Below are positions 1-18,301 of a stretch of 19,525 nt of DNA, one piece after another. The position numbers and the translations under genes are program-made. The DNA is from a virus. Its lineage: Duplodnaviria; Heunggongvirae; Uroviricota; Caudoviricetes. Below the pieces are notes generated by a model. That model was not told the DNA's origin. It ran no database searches and was given only the letters and a program-made list of their open reading frames with translations. Location: the IMG/VR virus record IMGVR_UViG_2579778674_000015, positions 1-19,525 of that record, one strand, 5' to 3'. Each line of letters starts with the position of its first letter. Within the stretch, counting starts at the first letter, position 1.

Positions 1-512
1 TTCACGCTCAATCTCACGACGAGTCATCAGGCCTTTCCATTGCTTACCGCCAGCGTATATCCAGCGACGTAGCTGGTCACATGCGCCTTTGATATCGCCC
101 TGGTTTATTTTGCGAAGAAGCGTCGATGTTCTGAAATTGCCAGCACCCACGTTGTAGACGAACGAGTAAAGAGCGCCGCGCGTTGTTTCCGGTATATCGA
201 CTTTGATGTACGGGTTAATTTGTCTGGCAACCGTGGCAAGGTCTTTATTCAGGAGGGCTTTGCATTCTGCTTCGGTATACGTTTTACCGAGCATGATGTC
301 TTTTCCGGTGTGTCCGTGACATACAGTCCATACGCCAACGATATCTTTGTATGGTATGTAGCTGACACCTTGCCAACGATATCTTTGTATGGTATGTAGC
401 TGACACCTTCCAGGCCATCGTCACCACTTGGGCCAGTGATTAACACTGATGCTATAGCAATTGCTCCGCCACCAATAGCAGCAGCAACTGCTTTTCGTAA
501 TGATGGAGGCAT
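1..512 (-). pseudogene. R: SAR-endolysin (phage 21 R-type lysozyme), frameshifted by a 38-bp tandem duplication; last ~7 codons lie beyond the window start
   Basis: Minus-strand ATG at 510-512 gives [47 protein letters not shown] (Gly/Ala-rich signal-anchor-release segment, E35 and D44 of the E-D-T triad), then the frame is lost. Conceptually deleting one 38-bp copy (334-371 = 372-409) restores ...[12 protein letters not shown]...[20 protein letters not shown] through to position 1. Start overlaps the holin stop (ATGA). Track ORF 249..512 is only the N-terminal fragment. Confidence 0.85.
334..409. repeat. Perfect 38-bp direct tandem duplication (2 copies) inside the endolysin gene
   Basis: gccaacgatatctttgtatggtatgtagctgacacctt occurs at 334-371 and again at 372-409 with no mismatch. 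38 is not a multiple of 3, so it shifts the frame after codon 47. Confidence 0.95.
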
Positions 513-727
513 TATTCACCTCTCGCAGCCTTGCGCTTATCTTCTTTAATCTTGAAATAAAGGTTTGTCAGGTACGTCAGCAGGCCAAATACCAGACTAC
601 CCAGCACACCTATTGCCGCCCACTGTGAGGGCGTGACTTTATCGAGCAACTGTAAAAACCAGTACCCGGCACTACCTGCTGAGGTGCCATAGGCGACACC
701 CGTTGTTAACTTATCCATGGATTTCAT
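512..727 (-). CDS. S: Pinholin (phage 21 S-type class II holin) with dual-start motif
   Basis: [71 protein letters not shown] (71 aa): two predicted TM segments, charged C-terminus, Met1-Lys-Ser-Met4 dual start. SD-like GAGGTGG upstream of ATG at 727. Track ORF 512..790 is an upstream in-frame extension. Confidence 0.85.
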
Positions 728-794
728 AACCCCACCTCGCAGATGCGGGTGCTGTGTAATGGAAATAAAAAGGCCACCTGACGTGGCCACCAGA

Positions 795-1847
795 TTATTT
801 CCCCACCAGCTCGTTTATCTCTTTCACTGTCTGGTTAAACCGCTCTGACTCAAGCTCAACACCTAAGGCCCGACGCCCCAGCGCCATTGCTGCTTTTATT
901 GTGGAACCGGATCCCATAAAAAAATCAGCAACCAGATCACCAGGTCGACTACTGGCATTGATTATTTGCCTGAGCATATCCGCCGGTTTCTCACACGGAT
1001 GTTTACCCGGGTAGAACTGAACGGGTTTATGCATCCAGACATCGGTATAAGGCACGGAGACTGATACGGAGAAATAGCGCCGGAGAGATTTAAACTCATC
1101 CAGCAATTCAGAATATTTGCGATTCAGTGAATCATAAGATGCCACCAGCTGGTGGTGTGGTTGTTCCAGTTGTTGTTCCTGAAACTTCTCTGCCGCTATA
1201 CGGGAAAACAGTGCCTGTAACTTCCGATAGTCAGCCTCATTCGGCAACTGCCACTGACTGGCACCAAACCAGTGGGAAACCATATTTTTCTTACCTGTGG
1301 CTTCGGCAATTTGTTTTGCCGTTATACCCAGTTCGGCACGAGCATCCCTGAAATACGATATCAGCGGTGCCATTATGTGCTGTTTGAGTTCCCTTTCTTT
1401 TGCCGCATAGCCGTCACTTTTGCCGCGATATGGCCCCTGGTAATGTTCAGCAAACAGAACGCGCTCTGTGGCAGGAAAATATGCGCGCAGACTTTCTTTA
1501 TTACACCCATTCCAACGTCCGGACGGCTTCGCCCAGATGATATGGTTAAGCACGTTGAAACGTTCACGCATCATGATCTCAATATCAGATGCCAGGCGAT
1601 GCCCACAGAACAGGTAAAGGCTTCCGGCAGGTTTTAACACCCGCCAGAACTGGGCCAGACAGTGGTCCAGCCACTTAAGGTAATCTTCGTCCCCTTTCCA
1701 CTGATTGTCCCAGCCGTTGGGTTTCACCTTGAAGTACGGCGGATCGGTAACAATCAGGTCAATGGAATCATCAGGCAGGGACTGAATAAAATGCAGGCAA
1801 TCAGCGTTGATTAAATCAACACTGTTTATTTTTACAGTATTTTTCAT
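795..1847 (-). CDS. Orphan DNA N6-adenine methyltransferase, beta-class (DPPY motif IV N-terminal, FxGxG motif I C-terminal)
   Basis: 350-aa ORF with IVTDPPY near residue 30-36 and FFMGSGST near the C-terminus (motif order IV then I). No adjacent restriction endonuclease ORF. No obvious SD before the ATG at 1847. Confidence 0.8.
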
Positions 1848-1997
1848 GGATCAGTAAGCGTAACTCTGGTAGGCTCACTCTGCTTTTGCGCTAAAGCAGT
1901 GGGCCGTGGTTCGCTTGTGACCAGTAAGCATGAGCGAATGGCTGGCAGGTGCTACCAACACCCACCAGCCGCCCATTTTCACAGCAGGAAACCGCCA

Positions 1998-2225
1998 TTA
2001 CTGGCAGCGTCTGAATTTATTCCCGTACCCGCCGTTATCCTTCGCCAGCCCCGCCAGAACTAACTGAGTCAGTATTAACTGGCACCGGGCTTCGCTTACT
2101 CCGGTAGTTCTCGTCATCATGCGTGGCGTTACCCACTTGTCAGCAGGTAAGAAATGAAGGACTGCGGCGGCGGTTTCTGTCATATCTTGCTGTTTTAGCA
2201 TGTCTTTTTCCCTTCTGGTTAACAT
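1998..2225 (-). CDS. Hypothetical small protein (75 aa), first ORF after the putative late terminator
   Basis: ATG-initiated ORF MLTRREKDMLKQ... with a possible HTH-like segment (TRTTGVSEARCQLILTQLVLAGL). Weak RBS, no recognisable family. Confidence 0.35.
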   Translation of the reverse strand: MLTRREKDMLKQQDMTETAAAVLHFLPADKWVTPRMMTRTTGVSEARCQLILTQLVLAGLAKDNGGYGNKFRRCQ

Positions 2226-2323
2226 GACATACCAGTAACTCTTGTCTAAAAAGCCAGCAAGATAAAAAGTCAGTATTCACGACCACCAGCGTGTTTACTG
2301 TACTGCACCAAGTTTACAGGTAC

Positions 2324-2349
2324 AAAAAAACCCGCTCAGTGGCGGGTTC
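2324..2349 (-). terminator. Rho-independent terminator downstream of the Q-like gene (tR'-like)
   Basis: Minus-strand transcript reads aacccgc-cactga-gcgggtt followed by a 7-U tract (plus-strand A-run 2324-2330). Confidence 0.6.
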
Positions 2350-2394
2350 TTAAATCTTATCAACGGTAGACATACAAAGCCCATCGTTGTGAAA

Positions 2395-2423
2395 ATCTTA
2401 TCCATATTTTTTGAAAAACGCAA
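2395..2423 (-). promoter_or_regulatory. Candidate late promoter (pR'-like) just downstream of Q
   Basis: Minus strand: -35-like TTGCGT (plus 2418-2423), 17-nt spacer, -10-like TAAGAT (plus 2395-2400). Would give a ~60-nt RNA ending at the 2324-2349 terminator. The 10-mer GATAAGATTT is repeated in that leader (plus 2352-2361 and 2393-2402). Confidence 0.3.
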
Positions 2424-2454
2424 GCATCATGTCGTCATCTTCGGCGAAAACCAT

Positions 2455-3207
2455 TTATCTTGTCACCTTTCTCAATTGTATCTCTGCATATGCTTCTTCC
2501 TGCCAGCACTTTGTAACCAGTTTATCAATGACATCTGCATATCCTTTGTACCACTGATAATCCGTCAGGTCTGGTACCAGCTTCTGGACATGAAGCCGCG
2601 CCAGTGTGGTTGGTAAACGGCTAAACCGGTTTCCATTGCAACGCCCACAAACCTTATAAACAGGCGTGCCATGAAGCCGGGTTCTTTTTTCATCCAGGAC
2701 AATACCTTTACCCTTACACCCTCTGCACGCTGTGCTGACTTCTCCCTTACCATGACAATGCTGACACAGTTCCTTCACCCACTCTTCCTTGATAACAGAT
2801 TCCCCGCTTCTGGAGTGTTTCACCACTTCGCGCAATACATTATGAAATCCAGTACCAGCACAATGCTCACAGCGAGCCTTACTTGCCGCAGACCTGGAAT
2901 AATCAGCAAAGGCAAAATTCACAAGGTAAGGGATGATCTGTAACCGGGTTTCTTCACTCAATTTGTTCAATGTCGGGTTATCCAGTGCCATCGCGTAATT
3001 GAGCAGACCTTCAATCGCAAACTGAGGATCCTGAACACCAACTTTTGCCAGGAATAAGGCAAACCCAAGCGGTGCTTTCGACTGCACCATCCCCTGCGCA
3101 GCCATTACATCCGTAATTGTTAAACCACCAGAGCCTGTCGCCGGTGCGTCATCGCTCAATTTTGGAGATTTCGGGGAGTAATATTTCGGTAAGGCTTCAA
3201 GGTTCAT
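2455..3207 (-). CDS. Q-like late antiterminator candidate with four DnaJ-type CxxCxGxG repeats
   Basis: Last gene before the terminator and lysis block. Probable start MNLEALPKYYSPKSPK at 3207 with GGAGAA SD. Contains CEHCAGTG, CQHCHGKG, CRGCKGKG, CGRCNGN. Track ORF extends to 3249. Confidence 0.55.
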   Translation of the reverse strand: MNLEALPKYYSPKSPKLSDDAPATGSGGLTITDVMAAQGMVQSKAPLGFALFLAKVGVQDPQFAIEGLLNYAMALDNPTLNKLSEETRLQIIPYLVNFAFADYSRSAASKARCEHCAGTGFHNVLREVVKHSRSGESVIKEEWVKELCQHCHGKGEVSTACRGCKGKGIVLDEKRTRLHGTPVYKVCGRCNGNRFSRLPTTLARLHVQKLVPDLTDYQWYKGYADVIDKLVTKCWQEEAYAEIQLRKVTR

Positions 3208-3220
3208 GCTCGTTCTCCAC

Positions 3221-4216
3221 TTACGCCAGCACGCCAATTGCCAGCGCACGATCGATAAAACGAAATATCAGCTCCAGCTGGGAGCCATACTTCTCTTCAA
3301 ATGCCACGGTATCCGCATGCAGCTCGTCGTGATGCTTTCTGCACAAAGGCAACACAAAAAGGTCATGCGCTTTTGTTCCCATTCCCCCCTGACCGTGACC
3401 TATCAGGTGGTGGGGATCATCAGCGGGCTTTCCACAACATGCACACGGCTGTGTCTTAACCCAGCGCGTGTACTTTTCATTAACCCAGCGGCGACGTTTT
3501 GGGCGTAACATAAAAGACTCCGGCGACTCCGGATCCACTTTCAGCGCCAGCACCTTTTTCGCCTTATCCTGGATGATGCTGGTGGCAGGAACCGAAGGCA
3601 CAAGGTCACTTTCCCGGGAGACAGACGGCACAACAGGCTTCGGTAATCTCAGTGCCTTACGGGCTGCACTTTCCGGTAAGGCATCCGCCAGGTCATTACG
3701 AATCAGCCACCAGCACAGTTCCGGCATTGTCACAACGTGACTGTCATCAAAACCGAGATCCCGACGCACAACAGACAACACCCAGCGGGCACAGTTATCC
3801 GTTGCCATTGATTCCAGCCGTTCCGTGAACTGATCGCGCAGCTGGTTATCGCAGTGCCAGCACAGACGGATTGCGCCCGGAGCGTGTCGCATTGTGGTCA
3901 TGTTCTCGCTGTGCCAGTCGGAATGAGGCCACTGGCAGCCTTTTTCACGAAGTAACCAGCTTTCAAGACATTCCACGCCACCAGCACGACGGATCACTGC
4001 CTCATTGCGGAACACGGCCCGAACGGCAGGATCATCCGCCAGCGGTTGTGATGCCGCCGGAACTGCACCACTGGCGAAAGATGAATAACGTTCCGGCTCA
4101 GGCTCCAGCAGGACACGCCCCTGCATAAACAGGGGCATCAACTCTGAACCTGGCCTGAACAATACGATCCCCATACGCGGGGCAATTTCAGGGGTCAGTA
4201 GTGCTCTCACGGTCAC
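3221..4216 (-). CDS. HNH-motif nin-region protein (DUF968 / NinG-like)
   Basis: 331-aa ORF; C-terminal CACCGKPADDPHHLIGHGQGGMGTKAHDLFVLPLCRKHHDELH resembles HNH/His-Me finger. GTG start at 4216 sits 1 nt after the upstream stop; true start uncertain. Confidence 0.5.
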   Translation of the reverse strand: MTVRALLTPEIAPRMGIVLFRPGSELMPLFMQGRVLLEPEPERYSSFASGAVPAASQPLADDPAVRAVFRNEAVIRRAGGVECLESWLLREKGCQWPHSDWHSENMTTMRHAPGAIRLCWHCDNQLRDQFTERLESMATDNCARWVLSVVRRDLGFDDSHVVTMPELCWWLIRNDLADALPESAARKALRLPKPVVPSVSRESDLVPSVPATSIIQDKAKKVLALKVDPESPESFMLRPKRRRWVNEKYTRWVKTQPCACCGKPADDPHHLIGHGQGGMGTKAHDLFVLPLCRKHHDELHADTVAFEEKYGSQLELIFRFIDRALAIGVLA

Positions 4217-4217
4217 C

Positions 4218-5027
4218 TCAATGAACGGTATCGAGCAGCTTTAACAGCTCAGGGAATCGGGATTCGAAGAAATGCGGCTGCGTCTCGCGCGGATTTGCGG
4301 GACTGGTGATATTCTTGCCGAACATGCAGCCTTTCGCTGTCAGCGACCAGAATTTTTTGATGTTGTTAATCGCGGTACGGCTGTATCGTTCGCGCTGCTC
4401 GACGATCCCCAGCTTCACCATCTGGTGATATGCCTGATTAGCTGTCAGGCGGATACCATACTGCTTCAGCAGTGCACTCAGTGACAGCGTGGGGCGGCTT
4501 GAGCCATCAGGCGCGTCAGCAGGAGCATCAATGGCATAGCGTGGTGCCAGATTCGGTAAGCCAACAGCCTCCTGGAGTTTCTGACAGGCCCCAAGCACAG
4601 ATGAGTTAGACAGGTTTAACTCCCGGCGCATAAAGTCCAGCAGAATCACGCCAGCCTGCATCTTGTCAGCAGCCTGCCCGGATAATTTTTCCGGTGCGCT
4701 GGTTACCATATCGAAAGTACGGATCACCTTCAGATGGAATGACGGGCTGATCCACATTGCATAGGCATACACCAGTTCCTTGCAGACATAAGTTCCCCGT
4801 TCATTTCCCCCATGAATCACACTCACCGGGTCAACACCCAAATTCTGGGTGTTGGTCAATTCATGAACAAGTTCAACAGTTTGTTGGCTGGAAAGAAACT
4901 TTCCTGGCTCCTTGGTTCTGGCATTTGCACCAGATGCTACTGCTGCGCGATGCAGATCGTTCAGGCTGTAACGCCCATAAACATCACGACGAACTTCAAT
5001 ACCATCAATAACCATCAGATTATTCAT
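4218..5027 (-). CDS. KilA-N domain protein (Roi / antirepressor-like)
   Basis: 269-aa ORF with strong SD (AGGAG, 7-nt spacer). N-terminal ~110 aa (IDGIEVRRDVYGRYSLNDLHRAAV...YVCKELVYAYAMWISPSFHLKVIRTF) looks like a KilA-N/APSES DNA-binding fold. Confidence 0.5.
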   Translation of the reverse strand: MNNLMVIDGIEVRRDVYGRYSLNDLHRAAVASGANARTKEPGKFLSSQQTVELVHELTNTQNLGVDPVSVIHGGNERGTYVCKELVYAYAMWISPSFHLKVIRTFDMVTSAPEKLSGQAADKMQAGVILLDFMRRELNLSNSSVLGACQKLQEAVGLPNLAPRYAIDAPADAPDGSSRPTLSLSALLKQYGIRLTANQAYHQMVKLGIVEQRERYSRTAINNIKKFWSLTAKGCMFGKNITSPANPRETQPHFFESRFPELLKLLDTVH

Positions 5028-5046
5028 ACTTCGTTTCTCCTCTTAA

Positions 5047-5436
5047 TCAGGCGGCTGCACCCGCCGGTTTCTCATACTTACTGATAGTGATCTCGACCTT
5101 CCCTTTCGGGATAACCGGTCCCCACTCCACCAGCATTCTTTTCACCTGTCTGTCGTCTTCCCACACACCCGCGTGGGTCAACGCGTCAAACAGCGCCTTG
5201 TTATAGTTGTCCAGATCGCGGATCCGGTTATCCGGAGGAAACAACACGATCTCCACTGAAGCAGGTGCCGACGTTGGTTTTGGCAGACGACGTAACTGCT
5301 CAACTATTGCTGCGCACGCCGCGCTCTGAAATTTTCGCCCCGCCGCGCTTATCAGGCTCTTACCAGCAAATGCCCCTTTGTTGGGGTGTCGCCAGTACGT
5401 GTTCACGCTGGGCGGAAAAGGCAGGATCAGCTTCAT
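5047..5436 (-). CDS. rusA: RusA-family Holliday junction resolvase
   Basis: 129 aa, MKLILPFPPSVNTYWRH...RDLDNYNKALFDALTHAGVWEDDRQV matches the RusA signature. Start overlaps the upstream stop (ATGA). Confidence 0.8.
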   Translation of the reverse strand: MKLILPFPPSVNTYWRHPNKGAFAGKSLISAAGRKFQSAACAAIVEQLRRLPKPTSAPASVEIVLFPPDNRIRDLDNYNKALFDALTHAGVWEDDRQVKRMLVEWGPVIPKGKVEITISKYEKPAGAAA

Positions 5437-5759
5437 GCTTTCAGGCCTCTCTCATGTAACCAGTGGGTTGCACGCAGCCTTGCGTTTTCCTCACCGGCAA
5501 GCAGTGAGCGGATAATCCCGACCGCCTCGCTGTCGTCGTCCTTCACCGCGGTATGAAGCGTTATCCCCCGGGCCACGCCACGCTTTATCGTGATGACACC
5601 TTTTTTCTCCAGTGCGCGAAGATGCTCCACCGCTGCATTCACTGAACGGTATCCCAGCATGGTTGCCACCTCCTGATTGGTTGGCGGGAAGCCACGTTCT
5701 TTCTGGTAAGAAATCAGCATATCCAGCACCTGCTGCTGGCATTGAGTTAATGTCGTCAT
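5433..5759 (-). CDS. LexA-like DNA-binding domain protein lacking the S24 peptidase domain
   Basis: 108 aa; QQQVLDMLISYQKERGFPPTNQEVATMLGYRSVNAAVEHLRALEKKGVITIKRGVARGITL parallels the LexA N-terminal winged HTH. No Ser/Lys peptidase segment follows. ATGA-coupled to the upstream gene. Confidence 0.65.
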   Translation of the reverse strand: MTTLTQCQQQVLDMLISYQKERGFPPTNQEVATMLGYRSVNAAVEHLRALEKKGVITIKRGVARGITLHTAVKDDDSEAVGIIRSLLAGEENARLRATHWLHERGLKA

Positions 5760-6409
5760 GCCGCCATCTCCCTGACCAGTTTTTCCGCCTGCTGGCGAAC
5801 CTGCGCCAGAAAGGCCTCACCACATGCCTCAAGTTCATCGCGCCCGATGTAGCTGATTGCCGGTCCCTTCCAGGTCTTGTCGAAAACAGCAATAGCACCA
5901 GCGAAGAAAGCGCCTGTCGGCACCTGCTTCTCGTCCTTCGGGATAAACCAGGCTGGCAGTTCAAAACCAATACGCCCGCGAATAAAAGCAATATGGTCTG
6001 CATCTTCCGGCCACCAAACTTCGCTGGTGGCAGCTTTGATCAGGAAAACATAGCGCCCGCCTTTATCACGCATAGCACTGGCATGTTTCATGATGTAACG
6101 CATGCCGGTGATGTATTGCCCCTCATGCTGACTGGCGCGGCTGTACGGGGGATTACCAAAGGCAGCACCTTTAAGCTCCGCAAGACGTTCTGACCAGTCA
6201 TGCGCCAGCGCGTTGTCTTCCGCAGTGTAATAAGCGGCACATTTGGCGTTATCACCATCAGTAAACAGATCCAGAACAAACGGGCCAAACAGGGTGTTAA
6301 TTCCCCAGAAAATGTTGTCCGGCGTGCGCCACTGATCGCCCACTTCCTTCAGTTCATGGGCTGGTTTGTTCCGCAGCTCCACCAGCGCCTGGCAATATTT
6401 ATTACTCAT
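5756..6409 (-). CDS. Phage Dam-like N6-adenine DNA methyltransferase (NPPY motif)
   Basis: FGNPPYSR motif in a ~217-aa nin-region protein. Start taken as MSNKYCQ at 6409, overlapping the upstream stop (TAATG); the track's 6442 start is the alternative. Confidence 0.75.
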   Translation of the reverse strand: MSNKYCQALVELRNKPAHELKEVGDQWRTPDNIFWGINTLFGPFVLDLFTDGDNAKCAAYYTAEDNALAHDWSERLAELKGAAFGNPPYSRASQHEGQYITGMRYIMKHASAMRDKGGRYVFLIKAATSEVWWPEDADHIAFIRGRIGFELPAWFIPKDEKQVPTGAFFAGAIAVFDKTWKGPAISYIGRDELEACGEAFLAQVRQQAEKLVREMAA

Positions 6410-6897
6410 TAAGCCCCCACGTAATTCCCTGACAGATACCACTCTTCACCCGATGCAGCGCGCTTGCTGCTTTTCCGTAAGCACCGCTCACGATGCGCCA
6501 GAAAATTGTTTCGTTCTGGCTGGGAGTGGCTTTCACGGAATGCCGCCATCCACACCGTTGCAGCTCGACGGAATAAGCCCCTGGACTCCAGTTCTTCAGC
6601 CTGGCGGGTCAGGCACAAAATCACCCGGGGGTCGTTAGTGCCGACATAGAAATTGCGCACAGGTCTGGTTTCACGAACAGATTGTGGTTCCGGCTCCTGC
6701 GCTCTCTCAGTCAGGCGCGGGAAATGTCTGCGTGTATCTCCTTCACAACGGTGAGCCACACGCCCACTCTGACGTAACTTGCTTGCTGACTGCAGAACGC
6801 GCTGCCGTGAGTAACCAGCAAAAGCATCCGCAATGTCTCCGGAAGTACACCCCGGATGGGCTTCAATGAATTTCTGAACTTCATTCAAAAGACTCAT
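6409..6897 (-). CDS. Hypothetical protein with N-terminal winged-helix-like segment, basic C-terminus
   Basis: ORF immediately after the initiator-like gene. ATG at 6897 (MSLLNEVQKF...) preferred over the track's GTG at 6903. No family recognised. Confidence 0.45.
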   Translation of the reverse strand: MSLLNEVQKFIEAHPGCTSGDIADAFAGYSRQRVLQSASKLRQSGRVAHRCEGDTRRHFPRLTERAQEPEPQSVRETRPVRNFYVGTNDPRVILCLTRQAEELESRGLFRRAATVWMAAFRESHSQPERNNFLAHRERCLRKSSKRAASGEEWYLSGNYVGA

Positions 6898-6899
6898 GA

Positions 6900-7718
6900 T
6901 CACCCCCTGAATCCTGCCGGGATCTGGCTGTAGTCCACGTTGTCGTAACTGGATTTGAAGTACGGGTCCTCACGTCTGGCTGCAGATACCGCAGGAACTT
7001 CCCAGGATTCTTCGAAATGACGATCCGGACCAAAGAACGTGACAGCCTGTTTCACAAATTGTGTGCCGCTGTTACCCATCGCAGATACCCAGCCCGCATA
7101 GCGTTTCACACCTTCCAGCATGGTTTCGGGGTTTACCCCCTCATTCAAACGGGCTTTCCAGGCTTTGAAGGCTGCAGATTTTGAATTGCCACCAGCACGT
7201 TTGGGATATGCCAGCCATGCCTGCTCAAACTCCGGAGAATATTCCGGTCGGTTTGAACGAACTCGCACGGACTCATCAACTGATGCACCAACAGCTATTG
7301 GTTCATTGACTGGTTCTTTGACTGGTTCAAAAGAGTGACTGGTTCTGGGTGAATCTCCTGCACTACCCCCTGGTGCAACTCCTGCACTACCTGGTGAATT
7401 TGCTGCACCAGATAGTGAATTATTTGCACTACCACCTAGTGAATCTCCTGCACCATCCAGATGAAGGAGATAGATATTACTTGAGTTACCTTTTTCACCT
7501 TTCCGGGTGACTTTTTTTACCAGCCCGGACTCACAAAGGGCCGCAATATGATTCATCACAGAACGTTTGCTAATCTCGCACTGGTCAGCAATATGCTGGT
7601 AGCTGGGCCAGCACTCACCCTGATCGCTGGCATTATCAGCCAGCTTGATCAGAACCAGTTTTCGCAATGGATTACCCACTCGAATTTTCATCGCTTTAAC
7701 CATCAGCTCCATACTCAT
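6900..7718 (-). CDS. Replication initiator-like protein (N-terminal winged HTH, repetitive Gly/Ser/Ala/Pro linker, C-terminal domain)
   Basis: 272 aa; GGAGGTG SD. N-terminal LRKLVLIKLADNASDQGECWPSYQHIADQCEISKRSVMNHIAALCESGLVKK is an initiator-type wHTH. The linker is encoded by the DNA repeats at 7307-7458. Lambda O analogy is positional. Confidence 0.5.
   Translation of the reverse strand: MSMELMVKAMKIRVGNPLRKLVLIKLADNASDQGECWPSYQHIADQCEISKRSVMNHIAALCESGLVKKVTRKGEKGNSSNIYLLHLDGAGDSLGGSANNSLSGAANSPGSAGVAPGGSAGDSPRTSHSFEPVKEPVNEPIAVGASVDESVRVRSNRPEYSPEFEQAWLAYPKRAGGNSKSAAFKAWKARLNEGVNPETMLEGVKRYAGWVSAMGNSGTQFVKQAVTFFGPDRHFEESWEVPAVSAARREDPYFKSSYDNVDYSQIPAGFRG
7307..7458. repeat. Iteron-like direct repeats inside the initiator gene (candidate origin)
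   Basis: TGACTGGTTC at 7307, 7319 and 7336; then five 21-24-bp units starting 7348, 7372, 7393, 7414, 7438 (ggtgaatctcctgcacta / ggtgcaactcctgcacta / ggtgaatttgctgcacca / agtgaattatttgcacta / agtgaatctcctgcacca). Confidence 0.5.
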
Positions 7719-7951
7719 GCTGCACCTCCGAGATGCTTCATGTTTTTTCCGGAGCGAAAGGTTATAAGCGGCATACTGACGCGGTAATTACGGCCCAGCG
7801 GTTCACAAATCACCTTCTGACATTCACGGTCAACCAGGCTAACACGTAGAACATGCCCTGCAGGCGTGGTGTACCACTGCCCAACTGTAGGAATTGATGT
7901 TTTTTTACGCTGAAATAAACGGTAAATGTTGAGGATCAACGGATTAAGCAT
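7715..7951 (-). CDS. Hypothetical protein (78 aa)
   Basis: GGAGG SD 8 nt before the ATG; stop overlaps the downstream start (ATGA). No recognisable motif. Confidence 0.45.
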   Translation of the reverse strand: MLNPLILNIYRLFQRKKTSIPTVGQWYTTPAGHVLRVSLVDRECQKVICEPLGRNYRVSMPLITFRSGKNMKHLGGAA

Positions 7952-8780
7952 GACGATGCCCTCCGCTGATATTCAGGAGACGGTGAATATGAAAATTAGC
8001 CTTATCCGCCAGACGAATACGTTCAGCCTGCAAGTTAATAAGGGTTTCTACCAGAACCTGATGCGCCTGCGGATCCGAAAGAGTTACCTTGCGCAGAGCA
8101 CGTAGTGCAGTTGTTACATAACTGAGTTTATGTAAGTCTTCATCATTCAGACGAGTGAGGGCTGGGACAGTAGCCATGATGGCAGCCTCCTTGATCGGTG
8201 AAATACTTCCACCACCGGAAACGCCAATTTCGCTGGTGGTGAACTGAACGGGGTTGGCGTAACCGGTGATCAAGGAAACCGGCGCATCTTTCGATGCCCC
8301 CGCCCAGCCCACCATAACTTTGATGTGAGCAAATGCGGACGATAAAAAAGACGCTGGCGCGTCATATATCGCCTTGATCAATTCCAGGACGCCAATCCCG
8401 GCACCCGCTTTATAAGGTGCCTGAACAGTGTAACGTCCCGGAATGGCAGAATCAATGTGCTGGTGGTCCTTCACACTCAACAAAATCACGCCTGAATTTC
8501 CACAAAGGACTAAAGCACTCATGCGGGTAGTCTTTGCGAAGATAGATAACGCGCTGTGTTTCTGGTTCCCAACGAATAACATGGACATAAAGCCCTCTTC
8601 CGTCACGAAACCAGCGGTTAAGTTCCCGCACAACTCGCCCCCCACAGTCAGGTAAAGTTCTCTGTGGTTACTTACAGCCAGGTGATTTGGTAATCTGCAT
8701 TCATGCCGTAACAACAGGTGTTCAGCGACACTGACCACCAGCTGTTGCGACAAACGGTTATTTGCCGTTAAACTGTTCAT
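7944..8780 (-). CDS. Hypothetical protein (278 aa) in the early-right operon
   Basis: Long ORF with GGAG SD, ATGA-coupled to the upstream gene. No Walker or other catalytic motif recognised. Confidence 0.45.
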   Translation of the reverse strand: MNSLTANNRLSQQLVVSVAEHLLLRHECRLPNHLAVSNHRELYLTVGGELCGNLTAGFVTEEGFMSMLFVGNQKHSALSIFAKTTRMSALVLCGNSGVILLSVKDHQHIDSAIPGRYTVQAPYKAGAGIGVLELIKAIYDAPASFLSSAFAHIKVMVGWAGASKDAPVSLITGYANPVQFTTSEIGVSGGGSISPIKEAAIMATVPALTRLNDEDLHKLSYVTTALRALRKVTLSDPQAHQVLVETLINLQAERIRLADKANFHIHRLLNISGGHRHA

Positions 8781-9340
8781 GCGTTAGTTTCTCCACAGAC
8801 ACAAAACGCCACGACGCCCGGAGCTGCACACTCGCGGGCGTCACTCTTTTCTGGAGCGCAAAAGATTTTGTAGACCAGTGCTGCATGCTCTTGGAGCTTC
8901 GAAATTGACAGATACAACTCATCATTAATTGCTGTCTGCTCGTGTGGCTCCACGACCCCATCTTCGATTGCCGAACGAATCTGCTTTGAGTAATTCCCGA
9001 TCTGTTCGATGACTTCCAGCAGGCGCTGGTTTATATCGGCGTTCTCTACTTCCTCAATTTCAGGAAGCGATACGAACACCCCACCAGCAGACTGTGCGAC
9101 AGCATCCGCAATGTAGTGAGTGCCAGCCGCGCGCTGTAAAACCATTGCCCATCCCAGCGGGAAAATCTGATCGCCATCGGCACGAAGGCGGTTAAATAAT
9201 GCGTTCTCTGTTACATCCAGCCAGTCAGCTGCTTCAGCGTAACCACCCGGCAACGCTGCGATAGTTTTTCTGACAGCTTTCACGTACCACTCAGGCTGTT
9301 TTTCTACTTTCCAGTGATACTTACCCACGGTTAGCCTCAT
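8777..9340 (-). CDS. Hypothetical regulatory protein in the CII position
   Basis: 187-aa ORF immediately after the Cro-like gene; assignment is by position only. Confidence 0.4.
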   Translation of the reverse strand: MRLTVGKYHWKVEKQPEWYVKAVRKTIAALPGGYAEAADWLDVTENALFNRLRADGDQIFPLGWAMVLQRAAGTHYIADAVAQSAGGVFVSLPEIEEVENADINQRLLEVIEQIGNYSKQIRSAIEDGVVEPHEQTAINDELYLSISKLQEHAALVYKIFCAPEKSDARECAAPGVVAFCVCGETNA

Positions 9341-9371
9341 CGTTCTGTGGTTAAAAATTGAAGGTGTTCTG

Positions 9372-9572
9372 TTAATCTTTCGGATAGATATCCGGTCTTA
9401 AGTCAGATTTCGTAATTGCACCTGACGTGCATTGCTCAAGTTTTTTCGCCAGCACAAAACTGGCTTTTTTATAACCATTGAAAACCAGCCGTAAGTAGCC
9501 AGGTGTTGAGCCAACTTTTCCGGCCAACTCGCCCTGCTGTTCTTTGGTTAAAGAGTCCCAATACGCTTTCAT
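9372..9572 (-). CDS. Cro-like HTH regulator
   Basis: 66-aa protein MKAYWDSLTKEQQGELAGKVGSTPGYLRLVFNGYKKASFVLAKKLEQCTSGAITKSDLRPDIYPKD, strong SD GGAGGT 9 nt upstream, divergent from the repressor. Track ORF 9372..9875 is an extension overlapping the repressor start. Confidence 0.6.
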   Translation of the reverse strand: MKAYWDSLTKEQQGELAGKVGSTPGYLRLVFNGYKKASFVLAKKLEQCTSGAITKSDLRPDIYPKD

Positions 9573-9662
9573 ACAATATGTACCTCCGATATACATATTA
9601 CATGATTGAAATGAACCTTCAAGATACTTGTACCTTATCGGTACAAAGGTTTTAATTTCGTT
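9573..9662. promoter_or_regulatory. Divergent immunity-region promoters and operators (pR-like / pRM-like)
   Basis: Inverted repeat TTGTACC-n5-GGTACAA at 9628-9646; ATATGTA-n9-TACATAT at 9576-9598 enclosing the cro SD. Minus-strand -35 TTGAAG (9617-9622) and -10 TAATAT (9595-9600). Plus-strand -10-like TTTAAT (9651-9656) places a start near the cI ATG with no SD, suggesting a leaderless cI mRNA. Confidence 0.45.
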
Positions 9663-10337
9663 ATGAAAACAATCCATGACATCCGGCGGTCTAACGCCAG
9701 AAAACTGAGAGATGGTGTTGGCGGGAATTCTTCCTTTGCCACCATGATTGATCGCGAGCCAACCCAGACCAGCAGGTTTATGGGAGATGGTGCTACTAAA
9801 AATATCGGTGACAGCATGGCGCGGCACATCGAAAAATGTTTCGACCTGCCTGTCGGATGGCTTGATCAAGAACACCAGACCACGAACATCACAAAAAAAC
9901 CTGATGTTTCAATCACTAACAAACAAATAACGTTAGTCCCTGTCATATCATGGGTACAGGCCGGAGCATGGAAAGAAGTTGGCTATTCTGAGGTTGATTT
10001 GAGCACAGCAGAAACTTACCCCTGCCCTGTACCCTGTGGCGAAATGACTTATATCTTGCGGGTGATTGGTGATTCAATGATTGATGAGTACCGCCCTGGA
10101 GACATGATTTTTGTTGATCCCGAAGTCCCTGCCTGCCACGGTGACGACGTTATTGCATTGATGCACGATACAGGCGAAACCACCTTCAAGCGATTGATAG
10201 AAGATGGAACACAGCGTTATCTCAAAGCATTAAACCCAAACTGGCCTGAGCCTTACATTAAGATTAACGGTAATTGCTCTATAATTGGTACAGTGATTTT
10301 CTCGGGAAAACCAAGAAGATACACAATAAAGGCCTAA
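9663..10337 (+). CDS. CI/C2-type phage repressor (N-terminal HTH, C-terminal S24 LexA-like autopeptidase)
   Basis: 224 aa; C-terminal ...LVPVISWVQAGAWKE...LRVIGDSMIDEYRPGDMIFVDPEV...TFKRL...INGNCSIIGTVIF with Ser in GDSM and Lys in TFKRL; N-terminal XRE-type HTH. Confidence 0.85.
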   Translation: MKTIHDIRRSNARKLRDGVGGNSSFATMIDREPTQTSRFMGDGATKNIGDSMARHIEKCFDLPVGWLDQEHQTTNITKKPDVSITNKQITLVPVISWVQAGAWKEVGYSEVDLSTAETYPCPVPCGEMTYILRVIGDSMIDEYRPGDMIFVDPEVPACHGDDVIALMHDTGETTFKRLIEDGTQRYLKALNPNWPEPYIKINGNCSIIGTVIFSGKPRRYTIKA

Positions 10338-10349
10338 TCAATATTTATG

Positions 10350-10372
10350 AACCTGCTTCGGCAGGTTTTTTT
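10350..10372 (+). terminator. Rho-independent terminator after the repressor gene
   Basis: aacctgc-UUCG-gcaggtt followed by a 7-T tract, starting 13 nt after the cI stop. Confidence 0.7.
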
Positions 10373-10376
10373 ATAC

Positions 10377-10409
10377 TTGACAATGTACCCATGAGATACA
10401 TAATGTATC
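10377..10409 (+). promoter_or_regulatory. pL-like promoter with overlapping palindromic operator
   Basis: Consensus -35 TTGACA (10377-10382), 16-nt spacer, -10 CATAAT (10399-10404). Palindrome GATACAT-a-ATGTATC (10395-10409) overlaps the -10; ATGTACC (10384-10390) repeats the pR-region half-site. Confidence 0.5.
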
Positions 10410-10822
10410 CAAAAGAAACATGAGGCAGGCAAGATTCAAACAAAATTTGGTTGTAACACGGCGTATGGCACATGCGTCGTTAGCGGTCTGGGGACGTTAA
10501 AGGGGACAATCCACTTCTTGCTCGGGCAAACAAACCAGGTAGCCGGAATGTGCAAGTCAATGATGATGCTGATAAGACGCCTAACCAGCGTGGCGATCCG
10601 GTTTGACGCCTGGGAAGAGACCAGGGTGCAACGATGAGGGCATTTATAGAGCCGCGACAAAGTGTGGTGCCGTAACTGGCTAAGTGCTCTCAGCGTTGTG
10701 GTAATCCGCGAAATGGCGCGGCGGTAAGTATGGCGGGGTTACTCTTTCCCCGTTGAGGACACCGGATTGTCAGGTTGACCATACGCCTGAGTGACAACCC
10801 CACCACAACAGCCACTGCTTTG

Positions 10823-10868
10823 GCGGTACCAGTTTGTACACTTGCTTCCGGCTGGTACCGCTCTTTTT
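10823..10868 (+). terminator. Rho-independent terminator within the early-left leader
   Basis: Perfect 10-bp stem GCGGTACCAG / CTGGTACCGC (10823-10832, 10852-10861), 19-nt loop, then TCTTTTT. Confidence 0.55.
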
Positions 10869-10957
10869 ACAAAATAGAGAAGAGCATCACCGGACGACGG
10901 GCTCATAACCCAATCCATCCGGGCGGCTGCCACCGCAGGTGTTCTTCTCTGTTTTGT
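10869..10957 (+). other. Long-range 17-bp RNA helix (two G-U wobbles) enclosing 55 nt, upstream of the first early-left gene
   Basis: ACAAAATAGAGAAGAGC (10869-10885) pairs with GTTCTTCTCTGTTTTGT (10941-10957). The two non-Watson-Crick positions are G-U in the plus-strand transcript but C-A mismatches on the other strand. Confidence 0.35.
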
Positions 10958-11005
10958 GGAGAAACCAACCGACCTTGCAGGGTCGATATGATGAGGAGCA
11001 GCAAA

Positions 11006-11368
11006 ATGGCTAGCGAACGCAGTACTGATGTGCAGGCATTTATCGGGGAGCTGGACGGCGGCGTATTTGAAACCAAAATCGGCGCAGTTCTCAGTGAAGT
11101 CGCTTCCGGTGTGATGAACACGAAAACCAAAGGTAAGGTCTCACTCAACCTGGAAATCGAACCATTTGATGAGAACCGTGTGAAAATCAAACACAAACTC
11201 TCATATGTTCGCCCGACTAACCGCGGGAAAATTTCCGAAGAAGACACCACCGAAACGCCGATGTATGTCAATCGCGGTGGTCGCCTGACTATTCTGCAGG
11301 AAGACCAGGGACAATTACTGACTCTTGCCGGTGAACCTGACGGAAAACTACGCGCAGCAGGTCATTAA
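11006..11368 (+). CDS. Hypothetical early-left protein
   Basis: GAGGAG SD 7 nt before ATG at 11006 (MASERSTDVQAF...). The track ORF starting at 10775 crosses the terminator and helix, so the upstream extension is unlikely. Confidence 0.55.
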   Translation: MASERSTDVQAFIGELDGGVFETKIGAVLSEVASGVMNTKTKGKVSLNLEIEPFDENRVKIKHKLSYVRPTNRGKISEEDTTETPMYVNRGGRLTILQEDQGQLLTLAGEPDGKLRAAGH

Positions 11369-11433
11369 TATCGTTCTTAATTAACTGATTATTTATCTCA
11401 TCACTGAATATCTTTATATAGTGAGGACTTATT

Positions 11434-12258
11434 ATGTCTCAGAACTTAGACGCAACCACAATTAATCAAATCCATGCCCTTATTTCTGCTCAGGGTGTTA
11501 ATGAAATTATCAGTAATATTGGTGCCGATGCTGTGGCATTGCCTGAGAATTTCCGCATTCATGATCTGGAAAAATTTAATTTAAATCGCTTCCGTTTCCG
11601 TGGTGCGCTTTCCACTGCCAGCATCGATGACTTTACCCGTTATTCTAAAGATCTTGCAGATGAAGGCACCCGCTGCTTTATCGATGCTGATAATATGCGT
11701 GCCGTCAGTGTACTTAACCTGGGTACTATTGATGAACCAGGTCACGCAGATAACACCGCCACTCTCAAACTGAAAAAGACAGCACCGTTCTCTGCCCTGT
11801 TGTCTGTTAACGGCGAGCGTAACTCCCAGAAGTCACTGGCAGAATGGATTGAAGACTGGGCCGACTACCTTGTGGGCTTTGATGCTAATGGTGACGCTAT
11901 TCAGGCAACAAAAGCGGCTGCGGCAGTCCGTAAAATCACGATTGAAGCAAACCAGACCGCTGATTTTGAAGATAATGACTTCAGCGGCAAACGCTCCCTG
12001 ATGGAGTCTGTCGAAGCGAAGACCAAAGACATTATGCCAGTGGCATTTGAATTTAAATGCGTTCCGTTTGAAGGTCTGAAAGAACGTCCGTTTAAATTAC
12101 GCCTCAGCATTATCACTGGCGATCGTCCTGTACTGGTTCTGCGCATTATTCAGCTGGAGGCGGTGCAGGAAGAAATGGCTAACGAATTTCGTGATCTGCT
12201 TGTTGAGAAATTCAAGGACAGCAAAGTAGAAACCTTTATTGGTACTTTCACCGCCTGA
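11434..12258 (+). CDS. DUF2303-like protein (resembles E. coli CPS-53/KplE1 YfdQ)
   Basis: 274-aa ORF with SD GTGAGGA. Size and gene context recall the KplE1 yfdP-yfdT block; this is from memory, not a search. Confidence 0.55.
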
Positions 12259-12385
12259 TTTCATTACTGCAAATGCCCCTGCGGGGGCATTTATGGAAAC
12301 GTAATTTACTCAATAATCGCCGGATGGTGAGGGATTCTTTTTACCAGAATTCAGCGCGGTGCAGCGCATATACGTGGAGAACAAA

Positions 12386-12922
12386 ATGTCATTTATCAAA
12401 ACTTTTTCTGGGAAGCATTTTTATTATGACAGGATAAATAAAGACGACATCGATATTAACGATATCGCGGTTTCCCTTTCAAATATCTGTCGCTTTGCCG
12501 GTCATCTTTCGCACTTCTACAGCGTCGCCCAACATGCGGTTCTTTGCAGCCAGCTGGTGCCGCAGGAATTTGCTTTTGAAGCGTTAATGCATGATGCAAC
12601 AGAAGCGTATTGCCAGGACATTCCCGCACCACTGAAACGCCTTCTTCCTGACTATAAACGGATGGAAGAAAAAATAGACGCCGTAATCCGTGAGAAATAC
12701 GGGTTACCCCCGGTTATGAGTACACCCGTGAAATATGCCGATCTCATCATGCTGGCAACCGAACGCCGCGATCTCGGGCTTGATGATGGCTCTTTCTGGC
12801 CTGTACTGGAAGGCATCCCGGCAACAGAGATGTTCAACGTGATTCCACTGGCACCGGGCCATGCCTACGGGATGTTTATGGAACGTTTTAACGATTTATC
12901 GGAGTTACGCAAATGCGCATGA
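12386..12922 (+). CDS. HD-domain phosphohydrolase (YfdR-like 5'-deoxynucleotidase family)
   Basis: HFYSVAQH and HDATEA metal-binding motifs; GGAG SD 7 nt before ATG at 12386 (track starts at a GTG at 12359). Confidence 0.7.
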   Translation: MSFIKTFSGKHFYYDRINKDDIDINDIAVSLSNICRFAGHLSHFYSVAQHAVLCSQLVPQEFAFEALMHDATEAYCQDIPAPLKRLLPDYKRMEEKIDAVIREKYGLPPVMSTPVKYADLIMLATERRDLGLDDGSFWPVLEGIPATEMFNVIPLAPGHAYGMFMERFNDLSELRKCA

Positions 12923-13275
12923 ATGTTTTCGAAATGGAAGGGTTTCTTCGCGGGAAATGTGTACCGCGAGATCTGAAAGTGAACGAAACAAATGCTGAGT
13001 ACCTGGTACGTAAATTCGACGCGCTTGAAGCTAAATGTGCGGCACTGGAAAACAAAATAATACCAGTGTCAACTGAACTGCCACCAGCAAATGAAAGTGT
13101 TCTGTTATTTGATGCTAATGGAGAAGGCTGGCTGATTGGCTGGCGTTCTCTCTGGTACACCTGGGGACAAAAAGAAACCGGAGAATGGCAGTGGACATTT
13201 CAGGTCGGGGACCTTGAAAACTTCAATATCACTCACTGGGCAGTAATGCCCAAAGCGCCGGAGGCTGGAGCATAA
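12913..13275 (+). CDS. Hypothetical protein (DUF551-like Trp-rich C-terminus)
   Basis: 120 aa, GGAG SD, start overlaps the upstream stop. C-terminal GWLIGWRSLWYTWGQKETGEWQW...THWAVMP. Confidence 0.55.
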   Translation: MRMNVFEMEGFLRGKCVPRDLKVNETNAEYLVRKFDALEAKCAALENKIIPVSTELPPANESVLLFDANGEGWLIGWRSLWYTWGQKETGEWQWTFQVGDLENFNITHWAVMPKAPEAGA

Positions 13276-13895
13276 TGACCACATTTACCAATAAAGAACT
13301 GATTAAAGAAATCAAAGAACGAATCAGCAGCCTAGAGGTTCGAGACGATATTGAGCGCCGTGCTTATGAAATTGCTCTGGCATCGCTGGAAGAGGAGCCG
13401 GTGGCATGGCTGCATTCAGACAATGGCTTAGGTATTCCGGCAATAACCAGGAGCAAAAACATTGCTGACAGTTGGTTATCAATGGGCTGGTATGTTCAGC
13501 CGCTATATATAGCCAAGCCAGTACTGGTGGTGCCAGATGCTCGTCCGTCTTTAAATAATGGCATAGTCGGTTTTGATGAAGGCTGGAACGCCTGCCGCGC
13601 CACCATGCTTCATGGTGCCAAACCTGTAAGCCAGACTTACAAGTTGAACAAGCTGTCGGGCAACTCTCCGGTAACTCAGGATGGTTGGATAAGCTGTAGT
13701 GAGCGAATGCCGAACGATAAACAGTATGTTTGGTGTTGGGGTAAGTCTTACGGCTGGACTGAGTGCGATACCTTCGAAGGGTATTACGATTGGTCGAGAA
13801 ACAAATGGTGGGCAGTTACTGACGATGGGGAAGAACCGGCATCGAAAGTAACCCACTGGATGCCGCTACCGGAGCCACCGCAGGAGGTGAAGTAA
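13275..13895 (+). CDS. DUF551-like protein
   Basis: 206 aa; start overlaps the upstream stop (TAATG). C-terminal WISCSERMPNDKQYVWCWG...WWAVTDDGEEPASKVTHWMPLPEPP. Confidence 0.55.
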   Translation: MTTFTNKELIKEIKERISSLEVRDDIERRAYEIALASLEEEPVAWLHSDNGLGIPAITRSKNIADSWLSMGWYVQPLYIAKPVLVVPDARPSLNNGIVGFDEGWNACRATMLHGAKPVSQTYKLNKLSGNSPVTQDGWISCSERMPNDKQYVWCWGKSYGWTECDTFEGYYDWSRNKWWAVTDDGEEPASKVTHWMPLPEPPQEVK

Positions 13896-14089
13896 TGAAC
13901 AACTTAATGACAACTAAACAAGTCGCCGACTTCTGTGGCGTTTCAGTATCGACCGTTCTTCGCTGGAACAGCGTAAACAGGAGAACTGGCCAGAAATACA
14001 GGCCTGACTTTCCAGATCCTGATATTAAATCCTGCCCAAATAAATGGGCATCACGCAAGATATACAGGTTTGCTGGAGTTATTGAGTGA
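13895..14089 (+). CDS. Excisionase / AlpA-family HTH protein (putative Xis)
   Basis: 64 aa with strong SD AGGAGGTGA. TTKQVADFCGVSVSTVLRW is a MerR/Xis-type HTH. Last gene of the plus-strand block. Confidence 0.5.
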   Translation: MNNLMTTKQVADFCGVSVSTVLRWNSVNRRTGQKYRPDFPDPDIKSCPNKWASRKIYRFAGVIE

Positions 14090-14124
14090 TGGGTATTAGC
14101 TCATATCAGAACTAATACCCATCA
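14087..14124. repeat. Perfect 13-bp inverted repeat (hairpin, 12-nt loop) at the xis-like stop codon
   Basis: TGATGGGTATTAG (14087-14099) and CTAATACCCATCA (14112-14124). No flanking T/A tract on either strand. A second weaker inverted repeat GACACAG...CTGTGTC follows. Confidence 0.6.
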
Positions 14125-14291
14125 ATGACACAGAGCCAACTACCCACCCTGTGTCAGGGGCTAACTTTTAACACCATAATTCACCGCTAGATAAAAACTG
14201 TATTGCATTGCACGAGCGGCGCAGCATTATCAGTTAGAGTGTCTTTACCTTGTTAGGCTCCACAGTTCGCACTGTCCAACGCCTGTCACTT

Positions 14292-18119: not shown

Positions 18120-18169
18120 TCCTTTTCCTCCTATCCAATGTGCACGTTCATTCGAGTAAATGAAGGCAA

Positions 18170-18215
18170 GGGGTTACATCTTATTATACCGACCGTGCAA
18201 ATCCGGCTTCCTAGC
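18170..18215 (-). promoter_or_regulatory. Candidate promoter for the SIR2 gene in the int-SIR2 intergenic region
   Basis: Perfect -10 TATAAT on the minus strand (plus 18183-18188), ~60 nt upstream of the ATG; only a poor -35 (TTGCAC-like, wrongly spaced). Confidence 0.25.
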
Positions 18216-18301
18216 AAGCTACTTTACTTGCCAACTCATAATGTCCGAACTCCGAACAAAGCGGACTGCTAGATTTGATTGCGTTCTAGCTACGCAAAAT
18301 A

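Follow-up and report, generated by a model that had tools for sequence, protein, structure and literature searches.

A probable replication origin of iterons and conserved boxes inside the initiator gene of a lambdoid prophage

The replication origin of phage lambda lies in the middle of gene O and combines iterons with an AT-rich tract; in the Shiga toxin (Stx) phages 933W and P27 the iterons number six rather than four, and the O protein is longer by 13 residues (PMC7466680). The record of phage P22 likewise carries a rep_origin feature inside gene 18, and a paper on phage L predicts an origin from repeats in gene 18 of that phage. The subject here is a stretch of 19,525 nucleotides (nt) of Caudoviricetes DNA, IMG/VR record IMGVR_UViG_2579778674_000015 from position 1 to 19,525, hereafter the window, which represents a lambdoid prophage of Escherichia coli with its early operon on the minus strand. 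Judged from its sequence, the segment 7295-7455 is probably the replication origin of this prophage, set within the prophage's initiator gene in the part that codes for the linker. As in lambda, 933W and P27, this origin would lie in the inter-domain linker of the initiator and contains several dyad-symmetric iterons of about 19 bp, which the N-terminal domain binds in those phages and is predicted to bind in the window.

The repeat array and its initiator

The array at 7295-7455 corresponds to codons 88-141 of the initiator open reading frame (ORF), most of them in a linker predicted to be disordered. The features concerned are as follows (array sequences are given on the gene strand).

6900-7718, minus strand: initiator gene, 272 aa (ORF and translation); N-domain winged-helix, linker disordered, C-domain helical with a tail
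7458-7718, minus strand: N-terminal winged-helix domain (aa 1-87), predicted recognition helix aa 51-64
7437-7455, minus strand: iteron 1, TGGTGCAGGAGATTCACTA
7413-7431, minus strand: iteron 2, TAGTGCAAATAATTCACTA, with symmetric ends
7392-7410, minus strand: iteron 3, TGGTGCAGCAAATTCACCA, with symmetric ends
7371-7389, minus strand: iteron 4, TAGTGCAGGAGTTGCACCA
7347-7365, minus strand: iteron 5, TAGTGCAGGAGATTCACCC, abutting the box element
7295-7346, minus strand: conserved box element, AGAACCAGTCAC-TCTTTT-GAACCAGTCA-AA-GAACCAGTCA-AT-GAACCAATAG, a candidate opening or helicase-loading site
6903-7292, minus strand: exchangeable C-terminal module (aa 143-272), three predicted helices (aa 162-214) and then a low-confidence tail
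6903-6929, minus strand: tail SQIPAGFRG, matching the last residues of E. coli DnaT (SQIPPGFRG) at 8 of 9 positions, at the extreme C-terminus in both proteins

The five repeats have the form T-R-GTGCA-N5-T(T/G)CAC-Y-A and are spaced 24, 21, 21 and 24 bp from centre to centre, or about two helical turns, with the core GTGCA-N5-TNCAC at 7439-7453, 7415-7429, 7394-7408, 7373-7387 and 7349-7363. Over both strands this core matches 6 times at the five sites, the palindrome at 7373-7387 being counted twice, as compared with about 0.2 expected, and none of 200 shuffles reached 6; no other array of this kind occurs elsewhere in the window. The box TGACTGGTTC is present in the 19.5-kb window in exactly three copies (7307-7316, 7319-7328 and 7336-7345), all within 39 bp, and a fourth at 7295-7304 is degenerate, retaining 7 of 10 bases. 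A preliminary description, made from the letters of the window, had reported three box copies followed by five units of 21-24 bp in the linker-coding part, and both the exact box copies and the five units are indeed found there. Box 1 (7336-7345) is read as R-T-S-H, and box 2 (7319-7328) and box 3 (7307-7316) are both read as E-P-V, so that GAACCAGTCA is used once as aGA-ACC-AGT-CAc and twice as GAA-CCA-GTC-A; the spacing of boxes 1 and 2, 17 nt, is not a multiple of three. The guanine-plus-cytosine (GC) fraction of the box region is about 0.40-0.45, a modest local minimum relative to about 0.50 in the gene and nearby. No Rfam family overlaps 7295-7455, GATC does not cluster in the region, and its single-strand folding is not unusual (z = -1.25).

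The initiator matches Pfam HTH_36 (E = 1.8e-11; 44.1 bits against a gathering score of 25, the cut-off), with a weak DnaD_N match, and PHROG 270, 'replication initiation protein' (E = 1.8e-88). In the AlphaFold2 model, one winged-helix domain precedes a C-domain of three helices. The predicted local distance difference test score (pLDDT) is 68-90 over residues 1-90, with helices at 3-11, 17-28, 40-47 and 51-64 and a beta wing at 67-85, and is mostly below 50 over residues 94-156, that is, over the linker between the confident N-domain (1-87) and the helical C-domain. The repeats fall in this low-confidence linker between folded domains, the same relative place as the origins of lambda and P22. 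Foldseek returned generic winged-helix matches only, including the DnaD N-domain (best E 0.013, none at or below 0.001), and a specific structural family was not assignable; a sequence search of the PDB with the initiator gave nothing meaningful, and no DnaT chain was among its matches. The gene is 98-99% identical to 'replication protein' genes of SfV (orf39), mEp460, Ayreon, cdtI, Stx2c and Stx2a phages, among them that of Stx2a_WGPS2 (AP012537; 98.4% over 819 nt, full length), the representative of the 'Eru6' replication type of Stx phages (PMC8951638). The two parts of the protein match different sets of phage proteins, over either aa 1-136/142 or aa 142-272. At 7495-7510 on the plus strand, antisense within the initiator gene and just upstream (in the gene sense) of the iterons, there is a terminator-like hairpin, TCACCTTTCCGGGTGA, followed by a T run; the array has a low-GC patch on either side, and the hairpin is in one of these.

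Conservation as DNA across the family

When the peptide was held fixed and synonymous codons were resampled from the operon's own usage, five repeat sites were obtained in none of 100,000 draws (maximum 3), and three boxes in 1 of 100,000. Homologues were collected independently of the repeats, by tblastn of phage genomes and by a scan of 185,579 species genomes with N-domain peptide patterns only (loci L134-L213). Boxes resembling GAACCAGTCA stand at the linker end in 78 of the 79 usable loci chosen by protein, the usual arrangement being frame 1 for box 1 and frame 0 for box 2, at a spacing of 17 nt. In L183, L205, L206 and L211, four lineages from this protein-based selection, both boxes are in frame 0 (E-P-V) at a spacing of 15 nt instead of 17, and the box DNA reads H-P-E-P-V-T-L-E-P-V, as opposed to the usual P-R-T-S-H-S-F-E-P-V. 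Codon usage was compared in 62 non-redundant homologues, less than 90% identical in N-domain DNA and chosen by N-domain protein pattern. Their strictly conserved N-domain residues use 2-6 codons, the commonest accounting on average for 0.54 of uses; for the core codons of the box element the commonest codon reaches 0.91-1.00, with Arg always AGA, Thr ACC, Ser AGT and then TCT, His CAC, Glu GAA, and Val GTC in 98%, as scored on the 55 of 62 sequences that have at most two mismatches per box, a slight bias that excludes only 7.

The iterons behave in a comparable manner. Among the 85 distinct linkers with the window's repeat type, defined by at least three GTG[CA]A-N5-T[GT]CAC sites, 39 carry iterons in more than one reading frame, as where GTAGTGCAGGAGATTCACCAGGG is read V-V-Q-E-I-H-Q-G instead of S-A-G-D-S-P-G. 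It is unlikely that such frame-shifted copies are errors of sequencing or assembly, as they occur across dozens of independent genomes. Spacing in the 85 linkers is 21 bp in 115 cases, 22 in 29, 23 in 35 and 24 in 106, which places 64 cases at 22 or 23 bp. Beyond the search pattern itself, the 219 unique sites favour T at -2 (87%), R at -1, Y at +15 and A at +16 (67%), and their central five bases hold little information; since the conserved positions follow the dyad, they fit a dimer-binding site and not the pattern expected of coding constraint. On this comparative evidence, the repeats are genuine signals in the DNA, and it is the nucleotide sequence that is conserved, whatever the reading frame.

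The iterons vary between lineages, but the box element does not. Members of the family include Stx phages ('Eru5/Eru6' types, phi24B, Min27 and Stx2c phages), SfV, which is a serotype-converting phage, and numerous prophages in Pseudomonas, Vibrio, Klebsiella, Salmonella and Aeromonas. At least 120 IMG/VR loci match AGAACCAGTCAC-N6-GAACCAGTC exactly; among the matches listed, 114 have upstream sequence of sufficient length, and in every one of these the element lies in frame inside a gene with this N-domain. With a 53-nt query the element turned up in 139 phage records, each time within the initiator gene (Escherichia, Salmonella, Klebsiella, Vibrio, Aeromonas, Pectobacterium, Stenotrophomonas and Aggregatibacter), and near-identical box nucleotides occur also in phages of Pseudomonas and Shewanella. 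Its presence is independent of the C-domain, of which at least five kinds follow the element, and of the neighbouring helicase type. In relatives that share the N-domain, the gene after the initiator encodes a DnaB-like helicase (ZF40, whose initiator is gp14, Vibrio V039C and Stenotrophomonas BUCT709), a primase-helicase (Stx2a_F451, and the 'P' of phi24B), a P-like loader (S1249), a 'replication protein' (a Klebsiella phage), or none of these, as in the window. In high-GC hosts, namely in Pseudomonas prophages, the box region is among the lowest few percent of the gene's 40-nt windows in GC and is the gene-wide minimum in 34 of 73 loci. To judge from these distributions, the three TGACTGGTTC copies are a separate, almost invariant family-wide element rather than extra iterons. 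This universal element, near-invariant direct repeats where lambda has its AT-rich tract, is an unexplained feature, and it offers a defined target for asking how an origin opens without such a tract or a phage-encoded loader.

The variation of the iterons is itself patterned, in that the half-sites covary with the predicted recognition helix segment. The pairs, given as helix segment and repeat, are as follows.

CEISKRSVMNHI: GTGCA..TGCAC/TTCAC
CECSKSAVR.HI: TGCCA..TGGCA or TGTGCC..GCACA
CEIDRSTVRKHI: GTAGGC..GCCTAC
CEIGRSTVKLHI: GGGGCAG..CTGCCCC
SKRSVMRHIDDL: GTGACA..GTCAC

The repeats of other lineages are equally symmetric and occupy the same place with the same spacing: TGCCA-N5-TGGCA, TGTGCC-N7-GCACA, GTAGGC-N5-GCCTAC, GGGGCAG-GA-GCTGCCCC, GTGACA-CAG-AGTCAC and GTGTAA-AAA-TTACAC. 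Such covariation of helix and repeat would be expected if each site is read by an N-domain dimer, as may well be the case, and the pairs amount to a natural specificity table for DNA recognition by winged-helix proteins. Taken with the exchange of C-domains, this means that N-domain, iterons and boxes act together as a single cassette for origin recognition, while coupling to the replisome falls to the C-domain as a module of its own, a division also found in lambda O.

Initiation, control or recombination

The reading of the array as a candidate origin, already offered in the preliminary description, gains support from the repeats, their spacing, their frames and the covariation, and further because the N-domain is accompanied by iterons and boxes in whatever recombinant context it occurs, as expected of a cassette of cis and trans components. 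In the mechanism we propose, N-domain dimers would occupy the five iterons, with the DNA wrapped or bent as in the O-some of lambda. The bound dimers would stress the adjacent box region, the local GC minimum, which would then open and provide the entry site for the helicase. The boxes would then be held or recognised, possibly as single strands, in a role like that of the AT-rich tract of lambda or the 13-mers of oriC and RK2 oriV. Transcription of the early operon would pass through the origin, as in lambda, and the C-terminal module would recruit the helicase.

The target of that recruitment is presumably the host DnaB-DnaC, because neither a helicase nor a loader is encoded between cI and Q, and the DnaT-like tail SQIPAGFRG may be the means. 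The last 31 or so residues (aa 242-272) occur as a separate module on otherwise unrelated initiators, and 2 of the 13 non-redundant genes downstream of initiators with a GFRG tail are DnaC-like; in K-12, dnaC follows dnaT. How DnaT itself recruits DnaB-DnaC is unsettled (PMC12871339). The tail can be regarded as a candidate motif for recruitment of the host replisome. An identification of the whole initiator as DnaT, or as the 'primosomal protein I' of which some relatives bear the label, was rejected, as only the last 9 residues match, at 8 of 9 positions. A bolder combination, which we consider rather unlikely as a whole, is that the GAACCAGTCA array is an undescribed, near-universal origin core of a large family of gammaproteobacterial phages, read by the invariant face of the N-domain, possibly as single-stranded DNA, and that in the loader-less subtype, to which the window belongs, a C-terminal tail copied from DnaT, a restart protein, lets the initiator recruit DnaB-DnaC (or PriA) of the host. 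Were this so, the phage would start replication by imitating the host restart primosome and not by bringing its own loader.

Several points weigh against an origin at 7295-7455. There is no strongly AT-rich tract by the last iteron, the box GC of 0.40-0.45 being far from the AT content of lambda; the DnaA box TTWTNCACA is absent from 6900-7718, its only two matches in the window lying elsewhere and being at chance level; and no IHF site was found in the origin region. The low GC of the boxes is consistent with opening but not conclusive, as a frozen sequence would give the same result, in high-GC hosts as well. An initiator with binding sites within its own gene could use them for autoregulation or copy control as well. 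Among near-identical prophages the number of repeats ranges from 1 to 9, so that the constraint on copy number is loose: proteins that share more than 87% identity with that of the window are encoded with 1, 2, 5, 8 or 9 iterons and 2-4 boxes (P0001, P0008, P0024, P0029, P0040 and P0042; locus L001), the two-iteron form is found on 64 contigs, and P0040 has lost the last iteron together with all boxes. Some of these copy-number variants may be replication-defective prophages. The accessible literature yielded no paper that maps or tests an origin in this initiator family or describes the GAACCAGTCA motif, and the roles given above to the boxes and the DnaT-like tail are ones that we infer.

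Plasmid iterons have both initiation and control roles, and the repeats might accordingly bind the initiator mainly for control, by autorepression, transcription roadblock, titration or handcuffing, with the true origin elsewhere. The range of 1 to 9 copies among close relatives and the want of a strong AT-rich unwinding element are what this explanation would lead one to expect, but the window holds no second array of the iteron kind, iterons and boxes stay with the N-domain in every recombinant context, and lambda and P22 provide precedent for an origin in this place; we consider it improbable. Another explanation would have the box element kept as a recombination joint at which N- and C-modules are swapped, with no role in initiation. 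The element does sit exactly where mosaic similarity breaks (aa 1-136/142 or 142-272), with C-domains of at least five kinds after it. However, its nucleotide identity across phages of Pseudomonas, Vibrio, Shewanella, Aggregatibacter and enterobacteria, together with the direct repeat fixed within it at a spacing of 17 or 15 nt whatever the frame, suggests purifying selection on a structured element; occasional recombination alone would not keep a tract in this way. The lambda origin doubles as a module boundary, so joint and origin roles are not mutually exclusive, and we find it improbable that the boxes serve as a joint only. Finally, the alternative raised in the preliminary description, that the periodicity only mirrors a repetitive Gly/Ser/Ala/Pro linker of low complexity, which would leave the DNA itself without a function, has next to no probability left: the five window repeats do share one frame, encoding similar hepta- and octapeptides (GAGDSLG, GSANNSLS, GAANSPGS, AGVAPG and GSAGDSP) in a region predicted to be disordered, but it is rejected because repeat copies sit in different reading frames across homologues, 39 of the 85 linkers keeping the 21-24-bp spacing with the peptide unrepeated, while the box 10-mer is used in two frames within the window gene, synonymous sites are frozen, codon resampling almost never recreates the repeats, and the information lies in half-sites and flanks and not in the centre. 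The comparison of DNA- and protein-level conservation proposed there came out, in other words, on the side of the DNA, the nucleotide repeats being kept while the peptide changes.

Gene order and comparison with described origins

An origin at 7295-7455 would stand within the early operon, the equivalent of the rightward operon, which in the window runs leftwards from the cI/cro region to Q in the order CII-like (CP76), Ash-family, 78-aa ORF, initiator, PerC-like, Dam, LexA-DBD, RusA, KilA-N, DUF968 and Q, all on the minus strand. The landmarks outside the initiator gene are these.

7715-7951, minus strand: 78-aa ORF, PHROG 1153, no Pfam match; overlaps the start codon of the initiator
9663-10337, plus strand: cI-like S24 repressor
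18302-19525: integrase of the window

According to a Pfam search of the window proteins, the initiator is the sole replication gene between cI and Q, with no helicase or loader gene there; the P-type loader is absent directly downstream of the initiator, where the genes from PerC-like to Q follow. The preliminary description, which had recognised no helicase loader among the downstream ORFs, was correct on this point. A strict Walker-A pattern on the downstream genes was not used, as it missed DnaC-like proteins (GKN variant). The same repressor-to-Q gene order is found in NZ_CP148393.1 (L216), a circle of 44.6 kb listed as an E. coli plasmid, which is probably the excised phage genome; its initiator is 99.3% identical. 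Within the plasmid collection, the initiator gene occurs only on phage-like circles of 28-48 kb and on misfiled chromosomes, and no small plasmid carries it, as would show a self-sufficient replicon.

Small ORFs of similar size stand directly before the initiator in ZF40 (gp13), cdtI (orf45), Salmonella phage 118970_sal3 and Stenotrophomonas BUCT709, and the 78-aa ORF may encode an accessory partner of the initiator. Rfam places a C4 antisense RNA at 8232-8319 (82 bits) and an isrK RNA at 8344-8420 (64 bits) on the minus strand, both inside a mechanical ORF at 7944-8780 whose product matches the Ash family. This region, between the CII-like and replication genes, looks like an antirepressor control module of the P1/P7 immI type; if so, the real start of the Ash-family protein is probably downstream of the RNAs. 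Elsewhere in the window, a 1275-aa ORF with a SIR2_2 domain (14292-18119, minus strand) adjoins the integrase gene and may be an anti-phage defence gene of the prophage. A 38-bp sequence is perfectly duplicated in tandem at 334-409, and two copies of a 20-bp repeat (10382-10421) just downstream of cI overlap a near-consensus promoter-like site (TTGACA-16-CATAAT, 10377-10404).

Among described systems, the analogy with lambda that the preliminary description had drawn holds for the architecture, with iterons in the linker and domains that recombine independently, but not for the protein, which is no homologue of lambda O. As in lambda, 933W and P27, a distinct element lies beside the last iteron, where the DNA opens in those phages and would open here; as in lambda, the C-domain would couple to the helicase pathway; and, as among lambda-type phages, iteron copy number varies from phage to phage and alters protein length (PMC7466680). 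Lambda differs in its Phage_rep_O initiator, its AT-rich tract, its P-type loader and its iteron sequence. A relationship of the window initiator to lambda O was rejected, given that Pfam finds HTH_36 and no Phage_rep_O and that there is no similarity to P22 gp18; the labels 'replication protein O' and 'primosomal protein I' on relatives are functional guesses, unsupported as homology. P22 gene 18 shares an intragenic repeat-array origin and an initiator of about 270 aa, and P22 has a phage-encoded DnaB-like helicase, gp12; the window protein's relatives in ZF40, V039C and BUCT709 are likewise followed by a DnaB-like helicase gene. In contrast to the window, P22 has an A-rich tract after its repeats and a gp18 of the lambda-O type, and as a homologue with a mapped origin gp18 was discarded (best BLASTP E = 5.3).

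Some iteron plasmid replicons bring no loader and depend on the DnaB-DnaC of the host. Iteron plasmids (R6K gamma, RK2 oriV, P1 oriR and pPS10) resemble the window in having a winged-helix initiator on phased direct repeats of about 20 bp, and the 13-mers of RK2, short direct repeats in the opening region, are a possible analogue of the boxes. They differ in that the window origin would lie inside the rep gene and has no DnaA box, and in that plasmid iterons are bound by monomers, whereas the dyad-symmetric sites of the window suggest dimers; the initiator has no Pfam match to the Rep_3 or WH1-WH2 family.

The 'Eru6' region has a near-identical initiator gene and the same Ash-family and HTH genes beside cI. 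The two Eru papers (including PMC8951638) sort such regions by gene content only, and the phi24B genome paper annotates genes; in neither case are iterons mentioned or the replication origin discussed. Toxin output of Stx phages depends on phage DNA replication, and locating the origin and the target of its initiator makes the non-lambda replication types directly testable. The kind of element is known, being the logic of lambda in an unrelated initiator family; what appears to be new, to judge from the accessible literature, is the description of a probable origin for the HTH_36 or Eru6-type family, and of its box motif.

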